NCBI GenBank assembly: GCA_951406725.2
Contig: OX597828.1
Span: 30,814,001 to 30,878,000 of the forward strand
DNA: 64,000 nucleotides
Origin: Octopus vulgaris
Lineage: Eukaryota
Reading direction: 5' to 3'
Shown here: positions 40,512 to 60,075 of the stretch, in pieces
Numbering within the stretch: position 1 is the first letter of the stretch
Layout of the letters: each line of letters begins with the position of its first letter
Notes under the pieces: generated by a model
What the model saw: the letters and a program-made list of their open reading frames with translations, nothing else
The model's database searches: none
What the model was told of the DNA's origin: nothing
Translations under genes and position numbers: made by a program

Positions 40512-41651
40512 CGTATGTATATATATATATGTGTGTGTGTGCGCGCATGTGTATATTGAAAGAGGGAGAGAGAGGTAAAGAGAGAGAAATAGAGTCAGAG
40601 AGATGGAGAAAGCGACAGCAGAACGACATAGATATGTCGTACTCCTGTCGATAGATAGATAAATAGATAGTAGGCGTAAAATGAAATATAGATGAGAAGA
40701 GAAAAATTAATAATCAATTAGAGGCGTATGGAATATATTCGCCTGAAAGCTTATTTAAACAACTGCATTATTAGTTAAACGACGTCTGAGGTCATAACCA
40801 TGTATAATGTGCAATGAGTTCCCATAATACTGTACGTCTATTTCCGACATCGTTTGAGATCACCTTGACGCAAAAAGCACTTTGCCAGCAACTCCTGATG
40901 TGTATAACACATCTTCTCCTGAAGTTCATTCACGTACAATTTTCTTAGATGTCATTATATAATATACATTATTAAGACACATGACATAGATTATTGGAAG
41001 CAGATATGACTGGGAGACACCTTTTATCTGTAAGTACTATGTATTCGAAATTGCGTTGATTTTCCGTACATTCTCTGAAGCCAGTTTTCGCACTCGTAAT
41101 CAGAGCAACCAGCCGTAATATGTACTGTTTAATGATTTCCCACGGCTACCACGTTCTTTATCATTTTCCGAAACGTTAGATTTTCGCATAATTGAAGCCG
41201 GATGAGATGCGAAATATTTAATGGGATCGTGATATTCAGGTTTGCTTCTTTACATTCTCGGATTCGCGAAGTTTAAAATTGATTTGAACACTGAGTGCAT
41301 GAAAATGGAAGGATGTTTAAATTCTTTCTATCTGGACATCAGTTGAGACAGCGAACAATTATATGATATTTAACATAAGTGCATAGTTACAAACGATTTC
41401 TATATATGACTGTTATTGAGACCACCTTAAGTCATAACTAACCGTGGGATTGCACCTATAAAGTTACCCTCCCGGCCACAAGTCAGGACAAGGTTGTTTA
41501 TGGAAGACCAGCAGTCGCCCATGCATACCGGCCTCCCTTCTCCATACCACCAGTGTTATCCAAGGGAAAGGCAAAGGCCGATACAGCTTGGCACATGTGA
41601 TGTCACAACTCATTTCTACAGCTGAGTGAACTGGATCAACCTGAAATAAAG

Positions 41652-41865
41652 TACAGTTCTATATTTAAGAGATGAGGAATTATGTACATTATTTACATTA
41701 TTTACATTCGACGGATAATTGTCCTCATCTTGTTTGTTGTTAACACAACATTTCGGCTGATATAATCTCCAGCCTTCTTCAGGTGTCTTGGGGAAATTTC
41801 GCACCTCGGCTCTCATTCCTAAGGTATTCTTCGATATTATTATCATTATTATTATTATTATTATC

Positions 41866-41946
<81 letters not shown>

Positions 41947-41951
41947 TTTAC

Positions 41952-42016
<65 letters not shown>

Positions 42017-42526
42017 CATTTGTTCAGGTCACTGTCCACAGTCTGTCTACCCTATGTGAATACAGGACTTCAAAAATACCTCCGAGTAAAACCACCAATA
42101 GAAGAAAATATGACCAAAGACTGCGTGTACTCCATCCCATTCAGCCGTCGAAGGTTATACACAGGGAAACATGCCGCCACCTCAAAGTAATGGTAGACGA
42201 ACATCGCAAATCTGTGACATGAGGAGATATTGATAACTCGGGTATAGCTGATCATGTATGGAAAAATGAAGACCACCTCCCTCTGTGGGAGGAAGTTAAA
42301 ATAATAGACGGAAAATACGAATGGAAAATACAAAAACTAAAAGAAGTAGCACATATGCTTGGACACAACAACTTCCTAAGCAGACCGAGTGGAGATATGT
42401 GCAGCATATGGGAACTGGTAATAAGGAAGGATAGAAAAATATTAGATTTATAAGCCCTAAAATTCCCTCCATAATTGCTCACGGGCATATGGCGTAGTGG
42501 TTAACAACAACAACAACAACAACAAT

Positions 42527-42566
<40 letters not shown>

Positions 42567-42667
42567 ATAACAACAAGATCGAAGAAAACCTTAGGAATGA
42601 GAATCCAGGTTATCCCCAAGACACCTGAAGAAGATGAGGACAAATATCCGTCAAATATAAACGATGG
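41652..42667 (+). mobile_element. 5'-truncated Penelope element with inverted terminal module, 9-bp TSD
   Basis: Inverted module 41652-41835, (TTA)n, GIY-YIG remnant ~42035-42440 (VCLPYV...KPPIEENMTKDCVYSIP...VDEHRKSV...DHVWKNEDHLPLWEEVKIID), A box, (AAC)n, direct module 42578-42667; TSD GAAATAAAG at 41643-41651 and 42668-42676. Confidence 0.85.
41742..41787 (-). ncRNA. Minimal type I hammerhead motif (family A), best-preserved copy
   Basis: GACAC-CTGAAGA-A-GGCTGG(AGATTATA)TCAGCC-GAAA-TG-TT-GTGTT. Confidence 0.75.
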
Positions 42668-43829
42668 GAAATAAAGCGTCTTGCTCAAGAACCCAACACG
42701 CCGCCCGGGCCGATAATTCAACCTCACAATCTCACGATCGTAACCTCGACGCTCTAACCACTGAGCCATGCGCCTAAGCCATGACTGTAATTCCTAGATA
42801 TACTGTAAGCATTTTCTAAAATGCACGCAATATAAGTCCACATATGCATTTACAACAACATAGCTTCACCTATATACACATATCCAGTTGACTACCATTT
42901 ATTTCTGTACACATAAACGCGAAAATATTTCTGGAATGTTAGTGATAAAATCAATGAAATTTGCTTGTACAGATTAAAACAATGAAATAACTTTCTAGAT
43001 ATACGCCAGAAATTGTAAGGTAAGCCACAGGTATTACATAGTTGTGTGTATTGATTCACCTGTCGTACATTTAATCGCAATTTTGTGGCAACATTCCACT
43101 AAATATCTCTCTATATATATGAGAATTAGAGACCCTCCATTTAGGAAAGTAAATAGTTTTAAATTTAAATACGCTCCGTTCTATTTTGAAATATCTCTTG
43201 ATCTTAAAGTCAAGAATTTCAGATTATAATGTAATTTTTGTGACGAGTATCGTCATGATTGGATTTATTCGTTCTGTTGGCTTTCGAAAATATCTATGTC
43301 TCCATTATCTGAGCTATGTGCAAACCATAAATAGCTTGTAATCCATTATTTATCCGACACTGGAAAACGATAATGAGAAAGTAGTATCTATTTTTGACAT
43401 CTACTATGGGAAACGAAACTTGAAGAAGTTTGTAATCTGACGTGAAATAGTGACGCATTTCAATATCAAAAATAATGTTTCCTTATCATGTATCTTTAAC
43501 TTGCTTCAACCACAGATCGGCAGCCATTATGGAGAAGCATCTTAACGGATATTTCGTCGGAAACATTGACCCATCAACTAAGTTACCAGCATCTGTACAA
43601 ACCTGGCTTTGTATGTGTGACGCAGTAACACACACGCACATACACCCACACATACGAGCGCACATACACATACATATACACACATACAGAAACGGATGGG
43701 GACACACACACGCACATATATATATTCACAGGCATGATGGAAGTAAATAGATACGCATATAATCATTAAAGTTTAATTAACACTGAAATTACACATTCAA
43801 ATTATTTATCAATTGTTAAAATATGAACA

Positions 43830-57901: not shown

Positions 57902-59093
57902 ACAGTTCTATATTTAAGAGATGAGGAATTATGAGCATTATTTACATACAACGGATATTTGTCTATTATTCGGCTGATATACCCGAATAATAGACAGAGA
58001 AGACCACTAGAAAATACGATATTTGCGAAATGTTGTATTGCTCTTGGTATTTCTTGGGGGAATTTCGAAACTGGGTTCTCATTCCTAAGGTATGATATTT
58101 TTTCTATCCTTCCTTAATACCGGTTCCCATATACTGCTCATATCTACACTCGTTCTACCTAGGAGGTTATTGTGTCCTTGCATATGTGCTGGTTCTTTTA
58201 GTTTTCCAGTGGTGTTCTCTGTCTATTATTTTAACTTTATCTCACAGGGGGAGGTGGTCTCGATTTTCCATACAAGATCAGCTTGACCTGATTTATCAAT
58301 ATCTTCTCGTATCACAGATTTGCGATGTTCGTCTACCCTTATTTTGAGGGTGTGGCATGTTTCCTACCACAGCTGCATGGGATGGAATACACGTAGTCTT
58401 TGGTTATATTCTCTTCTATTGGTGGTTTTAACCGAAGGAGATATTTGCAAAGTGTTGTATTACTCTTGACTACTGTCCTGATGTCATATGGGCCGCATTT
58501 CTTTTGTATTTCAGAGAGGCCATTCACATAGGGTAGACAGACTATGAACAGTTTATTGGCCTCATCCTCTTACGTCTTCATAATTGGAGTAGAGAGTATA
58601 CTTTTGAGTTAGTTGTTGCTTAACAGATCGTTATTGAGCTTGATCATTTCTTCGTGGTGTGTATCACGATCGCTACTCATATTCTTTGCAAGATGTTTTA
58701 GGCACGGAGCAATCTTACTCTTTACACTATATAGATGTTGATAATTACAGTTGAGATATCCTCCAGAAAAGTTTGTCTTGCGGTATACAGATATCCTGAA
58801 TCCATACTTGGTGCGTGTTATTAATACGTCCAGGAAAGCTAGCTGATTGTCTTTTTCATTTTCCATTGTGAACTGTATGGATGGCTTTATTGAGTTAACA
58901 TGATCTAACAGCACTTTGACATCTTCTTGGTGGGGCCAGTGTATAAAGGTGACATCAACATATTGTCGCCATAGTGTTGGTTTTAGTGGTGTTGATCCTC
59001 AAGCCAAATTCTCAAATTATTACCTGTATATATTGGCTATTACCTGTGATAATGGCGAACCAATAGCTAAACCCACCTAATAATAATAATAAT

Positions 59094-59173
<80 letters not shown>

Positions 59174-59328
59174 CAACATCGAAAATACATTAGGAATGAG
59201 AACCAAGTTTCGAAATTAATCCATGACTCCTGAAGATGGCTGGAGGGTATATCAGCCGAAATGATGGGTTACCAACAAAAAAGATGAGGACAAATATCCG
59301 TGGAATGTAAATAATGTAAATAATGTAA
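57902..59328 (-). mobile_element. 5'-truncated Penelope (Poseidon-like) retroelement with inverted terminal module, 13-bp TSD
   Basis: RT WRQYVDVTF...LLDHVNSIKPSIQFTMENEKDNQLAFLDVLI...VYRK, CLPYV, VYSIPCSCG GIY-YIG start (58095-59000); terminal module 57902-58092, inverted module 59178-59328; TSD ATCTAATAATGAA (57889-57901) / ATCTAATAACGAA (59329-59341). Confidence 0.92.
59225..59270 (+). ncRNA. Hammerhead motif (family A) with mutated cleavage site
   Basis: GACTC-CTGAAGA-T-GGCTGG(AGGGTATA)TCAGCC-GAAA-TG-AT-GGGTT. Confidence 0.55.
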
Positions 59329-60075
59329 ATCTAATAACGAAGATTAAACGAGTAATAATTTTTTATGATACACTGATAGTGTGGTGTAACAGACCGATTC
59401 ACTTGGTCTACTACATTAAATTATATGTTTTCCGATGAATAACGTCTTCAGAATGCCTACACTGAGGGTTTATATGCGATGATATAAAGTACACAAAAAA
59501 GAACAAATTGTCTTTTGCATTATTTTTCATATTATGTAGAACGTATTTATTTTACTCCTGTGTTGTATTGATTAGTTTTGTAATATATATATATTATTCA
59601 TTTTTCTAAGTGCGTATATTTTTATTCAGTCGAATATATATTTATGCATTCAGAATTTTGTTTGGCCTACTTTTGACATTCATTAATCCATTCCAAATAT
59701 ATTTTAATACTTTACATATAAATCGATTACGATTATATATTTTCCCTTCGATAGACTCTTCTGCTCTACTTTTATATTTACAAAAGATACCAACTAGAAA
59801 TATCCATGAATATTAATAACGGAATTCTTAACTGAATAAATAAAGTAGATTTTCGATTTCGTAAATTTAACTCAAATATTGATTGTAGTACATTTACATA
59901 AGATTTTTTAATATGTATGCAGAGAATTTTTAGCAGCCACATAAACTCCTCGCTGAGATGTGTACACAGTGGAATAATTACTAGTTTATCAATCAACATC
60001 ATATAAATAGTGGATAAACTTTAAACCGTCTGATATGAAATCTGATATGAAATTATTGAATATAATTCAATATAG

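Follow-up and report, generated by a model that had tools for sequence, protein, structure and literature searches.

The window analysed here, a stretch of 64,000 nt of the Octopus vulgaris genome (G000:C15:30814001-30878000; the genome searched comprises 2.8 Gb in 227 contigs), holds at positions 41652-42667 a block of 1016 bp that is a truncated, 5'-inverted and decayed Penelope-like element (PLE) lying inside a host SINE. The 9-mer GAAATAAAG is found on the plus strand at both borders of this block, at 41643-41651 and again at 42668-42676, and the two flanks align end to end with one intact copy of the host tRNA-SINE, L152 (minus strand in the window; flanks matching SINE positions 71-162 and 154-260 of L152). 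Since the 9-mer occurs only once in that intact SINE, it represents a target-site duplication left by a single insertion, which bears out the view of the earlier note on this DNA that the block splits an older SINE and entered as one event.

The left part of the insertion is an inverted 5' arm on the minus strand. It begins with an undeleted terminal module (41652-41834) that includes the start codon of the ORF (41816), a minimal type I hammerhead motif (stem I, CUGAAGA core, stem II and GAAA; 41742-41787) whose palindromic stem III carries a C-to-T change, and a 34-nt tail extension; in full-length copies the same module continues into the ORF. The arm further retains an (AAT)n spacer (41835-42019) and, as judged by comparison with other heads and with coding copies, the final 8 nt (66-73) of a tRNA-like head (42027-42034). 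A 4-nt microhomology at 42031-42034 marks the inversion junction, where the arm is joined to a plus-strand remnant of the ORF 3' part, comprising linker and GIY-YIG region (42031-42453). This remnant has a deletion, a frameshift and a premature TGA (42220-42222), and closes with the stop TAA at 42451-42453. The next head starts 29 nt after this TAA, not about 45 nt past the GIY-YIG remnant as previously stated, and the final 14 nt of the intervening 29-nt spacer (42454-42482, plus strand) form an imperfect inverted copy of the first 10 nt of the head plus a 2-nt loop. On the plus strand, the head is represented by its nt 1-22 (42483-42504), with GGGCATATGGCGTAGTGGTT located at 42483-42502 and the A box at 42490-42500, nt 23-73 including the B box being deleted in this copy; L050 carries the same deletion, and a profile of the family head scores the window head at E=0.00028 among the loci sampled. 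An (AAC)n/(AAT)n spacer (42503-42577) leads to the 3' terminal module (42578-42667, plus strand), which bears two internal deletions and reaches the first of the family's two 3' ends, followed by 5 additional bases. As described earlier, this right-hand module lacks stem II and GAAA of the hammerhead; it has also lost stem III and, of stem I, the 3' strand.

Three further copies of the family lie in the window. A back-to-back pair at 1880-2068 has its head on the minus strand (1880-1953, internally deleted) and its module on the plus strand. The tRNA A-box sequence at 42483-42502 had been described as identical over 20 nt to this head at 1953; the sequence is indeed present, but the identity extends over 16 nt only, because the 1953 copy has its own deletion. 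A longer copy with inverted module occupies 57902-59330 on the minus strand, and its lack of the tRNA segment at 58092, already noticed before, is explained by a private deletion at 58093-58099 that removed the stop, spacer, head and microsatellite. The third copy is found at 286-472.

Walking 5' from coding copies revealed the full-length structure, a repeat unit in the order head (73 nt, with A and B boxes), (AAT)n, module with ATG, ORF encoding reverse transcriptase (RT) and GIY-YIG, 29-nt spacer and head again, with the hammerhead motif lying within the first codons of the ORF. The reading frame passes from the ATG in the module through the hammerhead and the tail into RT and nuclease, and is kept through the hammerhead into the body in four of six translated copies, private indels shifting the other two; a relative with 57% identity, P0019, starts with a similar peptide. 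Taken by column majority, nine long copies yield 805 open codons, from which an ORF of about 840 codons, start included, can be proposed. Its RT is recognized by Pfam above cut-off (RVT_1, E=5.8e-8), and 72 relatives have both RT and PF26215. The family's own pieces gave no Pfam match for GIY-YIG, and the presence of a C-terminal GIY-YIG nuclease is supported by the pairwise alignment of the C-terminal region of L227 with the C-terminus of the PF01541-bearing P0066 (26% over 133 aa, E=2e-13). Judged by eye, the RT-EN linker is devoid of the cysteine cluster seen in the control PLE families discussed below. By every feature tested, the family classifies as an EN+ Penelope-like element with C-terminal GIY-YIG.

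The ends of the element also follow the PLE pattern. Pseudo-LTRs derived from partial tandems are direct in L200, L217, L229 and L231, and the 5' copy is inverted in the window copy, L016, L029, L166 and L170. Read and contig ends define two 3' ends 34 nt apart (2118-2119 and 2152-2153 of L035), and the optional 34-nt PLE tail is present in 13 of 43 modules. Hammerhead core spacing is kept in 24/43 modules and stem II folds, an assignment at the level of the motif, to which Rfam gives no match in the window. The family looks old: mean pairwise identity among the nine long copies is 88.7%, and the best protein matches included no full-length intact frame, the longest stop-free match covering ~550 codons. 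Short internal deletions bounded by microhomologies of 2-5 nt are common in heads and modules (for example L012, L013, L027, L036, L041 and L050); seemingly in excess of point decay, they may reflect slippage during reverse transcription. The (AAT)n spacer has itself been a target, with pieces of another coding retroelement, by eye presumably R4/Dong-like, following the head in L042, L110, L113, L131 and L156, and a different repeat sitting in the spacer of L118, L141 and L160.

The tRNA-derived segment is a fixed, family-wide part of the pseudo-LTR. Three sets of coding-anchored copies, drawn from partly overlapping loci, were collected with queries that contained no head sequence. A query ending 70 nt before the stop retrieved 29 other copies, 27 of which reach the coding end; the head lies within 80 nt of that end in 23/27, and both boxes are spanned in 19. 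The four negatives comprise L032 and L048, broken remnants by eye, L040, which ends early, and L042, without head. The RT-anchored set has the head in 10/11 copies (29 loci, 18 without usable end) and the protein-anchored set in 20/20 (30 loci, 10 without usable end). The spacer-head junction is bridged in contigs from four runs with four species labels, and in 5/30 ORF-start loci, as well as in L229 and L231, module and ORF are immediately preceded by a head. These counts answer the check proposed in the earlier note, and the finding that it had named as contrary, namely that most coding copies lack the segment, did not materialize.

A tRNA origin of the head is shown by direct comparison of sequences: the head has tRNA length, 73 nt, and shows no net gaps against the genome's tRNA-Arg(ACG), to which a mean of 45.3/73 positions correspond ungapped (z=7.7 versus shuffles). 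Hence the A box noticed earlier in the pseudo-LTR is present, but what was captured is not the A box alone, it is a whole tRNA length with B box; the A box was found in 19/19 heads, a figure fixed by sampling, and the B box in 15/19. tRNA-Arg(ACG) was the best of nine tRNAs and four host SINE heads, the next being Arg(TCT), Arg(TCG) and two host SINE heads at 39-42, only slightly lower. The tRNAs compared were nine sequences of eight anticodon types, leaving out Ser, His, Gln, Val and others, and Arg(ACG) would accordingly be the parent as the best of an incomplete set; direct descent from any of three host SINE heads seems less likely. ARAGORN called 0 tRNA genes in the window and in 44/44 loci, Rfam gave no tRNA match on L143 at E<=10, and on the window Rfam yielded only chance microRNA-type matches on microsatellites. 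The head as a functional tRNA gene was rejected, neither program calling a cloverleaf, which by these criteria is lost; a candidate parent emerged from direct comparison only. Tandem clusters of tRNA-Arg genes are located at C2 211.89-211.91 Mb (ACG), and at C20 5.23 Mb and C1 130.86-130.90 Mb (TCG). In coding copies, the inverted 14 nt that precede the head resemble the fold-backs with which short copies end, and may be a trace of the process that attached the head to the element.

An exact 25-mer from the head start has 1395 matches in the genome, against 0 for the reversed control; it is exact in 5 of 38 independently fetched heads, a proportion that suggests, as a rough figure, some 10,000 heads in the genome. 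Among the first 30 matches of this 25-mer along C1, 24 heads begin within 7 nt of position +1 and 6 run into the coding spacer (22/28 if two pairs with common flanks, probably duplicates, are merged), and in a second sample 3/30 were coding-linked. Starts of short copies fall at +1 to -3 in 12/24 and at -4 to -7 in the other 12, most of the latter folding back on a GCCC-AC-GGGC hairpin. The positions -7 and +1 are also among the main sites of loose ends in all four contig runs, which bear four species labels. Most copies measure ~0.3 kb, from head to tail end, often with an inverted 5' arm.

Short and coding-linked heads share variants in similar ratios, for instance A:G at head position 64 (33:22 short, 25:18 coding-linked; 55 and 45 heads), with inverted arms and 5' pseudo-LTRs counted among the short heads. 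The two classes differ at CpG sites, where the base was fixed by the sampling, and slightly at positions 65-66. These common variants identify the short copies, on sequence grounds, as solo pseudo-LTRs of the same masters as the coding copies. The SINE-like offspring anticipated in the earlier note do exist, at ~4:1 over coding-linked heads (24/30), but as solo pseudo-LTRs and not as a separate SINE family: a separate tRNA-derived SINE family would have a head with A and B boxes, which is found, but also masters of its own, which are not. A and B boxes are less diverged than the rest of the head (3.5% vs 6.5%, p=0.006, 38 heads), a difference that is not taken as evidence, since base composition and alignment ends confound it. 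On C4, a 5.2-kb tandem array (G000:C4:129452000-129482000; L121-L123) proved not to consist of tandem elements; it is a segmental repeat whose units are 90-98% similar, and one old inverted copy of the family recurs in every unit.

The captured tRNA-like segment likely acts as a promoter, and its potential use for the whole element led to a prediction made ahead of the count: if polymerase III reads the ORF, TTTT should be missing from it. The nine long copies have 0-3 runs of T>=4 each, and 0/10 sites are common to five or more; across 136 unique segments (143.8 kb) no T>=4 site appears in more than 12% of the covering copies, while the same segments contain shared runs of A (29) and of C (6). 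For the 2.4 kb of sense strand, zero shared TTTT has a P of 0.034-0.038 under synonymous codon shuffling and of 0.004 under third-position redraw, in a test limited by an expectation of only ~2.7 runs and by distant controls. Runs of G>=4 are likewise absent from the element (P 0.28). Two protein searches for sister families led in all 30 loci examined to the head family, and the controls were taken from lower ranks of another search. Of two metagenome scans aimed at DNA from the nearest relatives (57-69% identity), one gave no match and the other a single relative at 38%, L333. The controls were five other PLE families of the genome (L319-L330), with long open frames and a cysteine-rich linker, which we take to be Neptune-like and some of which are young, as indicated by 98.7-99.7% protein identity in L324, L326 and L327. 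They have 3-10 T runs per ORF, shared among copies where tested. On the metagenome contig L333 (L333:1-330), a Penelope relative keeps 881 codons intact and has a hammerhead motif ahead of its ORF as well as a short terminal repeat, and it lacks a tRNA-like head; it has 9 T runs, and all six control families are near expectation. Low Phe content was rejected as a sign of T avoidance, since it is clade-wide and common to relatives (2.2-3.8%). The absence of T runs fits a reading of the ORF by polymerase III, and is suggestive only. Three raw RNA-seq runs of one study showed equal coverage in both directions and no pile-ups at start or end, a symmetry that fits an unstranded library or passive co-transcription and is uninformative on polymerase III.

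Taken together, we lean with some confidence towards a high-copy coding Penelope-like element in which a full-length tRNA-like head is the likely internal polymerase III promoter of the pseudo-LTR. That polymerase III initiates at the head seems a good deal more probable than not, whereas its use for coding-length RNA appears evenly balanced. Going further, we tentatively propose, while rating it somewhat short of an even chance, that polymerase III, starting from the captured tRNA promoter, makes the entire 2.7-kb RNA of an autonomous element, both template and message, that the ORF has been purged of TTTT, and that the element sheds its own SINE in each round by internal priming. Transcription would start at +1 to -7 of the head and, meeting no TTTT, could pass the ORF and the next pseudo-LTR. 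By analogy with Poseidon of the anole, reverse transcription would then begin inside the RNA at two fixed sites; the internal initiation described there, as far as the available text of that study goes (PMC11167929), is matched here by the two 3' ends, which lie 34 nt apart. A start at the first module would yield a SINE-like solo pseudo-LTR; a start at the second would yield a coding copy, in most cases 5'-truncated and inverted, as is the one in the window. In the least certain step, translation would use either this RNA, uncapped and uncut as it is, or read-through transcripts of host polymerase II. Several points speak against this reading. The -7 class of starts (12/24) coincides with the GCCC-AC-GGGC hairpin, which could cause fold-back in any transcript; further counterpoints are the modest T-run test, the uncapped and poorly processive nature of polymerase III RNA, the lack of a tRNA call on the head by Rfam and ARAGORN, the nearly equal scores of other tRNA-Arg isoacceptors and host SINE heads, and the age of the copies.

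That hairpin, placed at -7/+1, together with the fold-back arms of many short copies, is also what an alternative would build on, in which the head is a passenger caught once between ORF and pseudo-LTR, polymerase II transcribes the element, and short copies begin at the head because structure there, such as the hairpin, halts reverse transcription or favours fold-back. The promoter known for a PLE, that of Penelope in D. virilis, is LINE-like in the accessible part of its description (PMC2377424), and the T-run P is only about 0.035. We nevertheless hold a passenger head to be unlikely, because half of the short copies (12/24) start at +1 to -3 without the hairpin, a stall would be expected at the 3' base of the structure, inside the head, and the six control families keep their T runs.

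A restricted role of polymerase III, confined to the production of short copies, with coding copies and the protein derived from polymerase II read-through and the head a selfish SINE-like add-on to the pseudo-LTR, would suit the dominance of short copies (24/30). It would also suit the inefficient translation of uncapped RNA. Kojima further argues, in the available text on TRIMp3, that autonomous partners need polymerase II (PMC10886601). This restricted role appears quite unlikely to us: short and coding copies carry the same variants, the absence of TTTT from the ORF would be left without reason, and tandem copies put the head directly before the ORF. That the head of the window copy came from a one-off template switch is practically out of the question, for although the other coding copy of the window (58092) lacks it, and L037 and L042 lack most of it, the head occupies the same place in 23/27, 10/11 and 20/20 coding-anchored copies and contigs of four other runs bridge the spacer-head junction.

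Retroelements with small-RNA promoters are, to our knowledge, non-coding. Cassandra, Helenus and Ajax (TRIMp3) resemble the octopus element in having a small-RNA-derived polymerase III promoter in the terminal repeat, but in the text available to us they are non-coding LTR elements of 0.3-1.3 kb, whereas here a coding element carries the head (PMC10886601). The same 2024 paper, in that part, describes polymerase III RNA as uncapped and poorly processive, and foresees polymerase II as the enzyme of autonomous partners, which would not share the repeat (PMC10886601). Assignment of the octopus family to TRIMp3, non-coding and with true LTRs that have PBS and PPT, was rejected, as it encodes RT and nuclease and has PLE ends. 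In architecture the family resembles Poseidon from Anolis carolinensis, of the Penelope/Poseidon clade, for which the accessible text reports RT and C-terminal GIY-YIG in one ORF, an ORF start that overlaps the hammerhead, partial tandems, and two 3' ends regarded as internal start sites of reverse transcription bounding a tail of 30-40 nt (PMC11167929). A tRNA-like segment or polymerase III promoter is not mentioned in that portion of the Poseidon study, in contrast to the octopus element with its head (PMC11167929).

With tRNA-derived SINEs the octopus copies share a head with A and B boxes, a 3' part in common with an autonomous partner and thousands of copies; unlike in SINEs, the partner carries the same head, the ends would be set by internal initiation, and the copies show frequent 5' inversions and no simple-repeat 3' tail. 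Sm-alpha is another family of SINE-like repeats with hammerheads, from Schistosoma. In these short Schistosoma repeats a polymerase III promoter is likewise followed by the hammerhead, but they are non-coding and tandem with a canonical hammerhead, and the available text describes no coding element that shares the promoter (PMC6765202). Animal non-LTR retrozymes are also short hammerhead repeats, proposed to be moved by PLEs, and differ, as presented in the accessible text, in being tandem non-coding units with circular RNA, no defined promoter and no coding form (PMC7761336), whereas the octopus short copies are the pseudo-LTR of a coding element. Our literature search, which ran mostly without subscription papers and with Repbase and Dfam outside its scope, found no PLE with a tRNA-derived pseudo-LTR; the word 'tRNA' is absent from PMC4209133 and has one unrelated occurrence in PMC8557442. 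An annotation of octopus repeats lists Penelope families and many unclassified SINEs, and shows no element of such a structure in its available part (PMC13282606).

If the proposed reading is true, the use of polymerase III for a protein-coding jumping gene would be unusual, and a coding element under this polymerase would be an example from nature of a long polymerase III transcript that is translated, so far seen in reporters, which according to the available text yield translatable RNA and improve when a TTTT is removed (PMC8223928). LINE and SINE would then be united in one sequence. The combination of a promoter in the pseudo-LTR with an internal start of reverse transcription would offer a direct route to the birth of SINEs, requiring no separate origin event. 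In practical terms, some thousands of copies in the octopus genome that pipelines would label as SINEs are the ends of a Penelope element.
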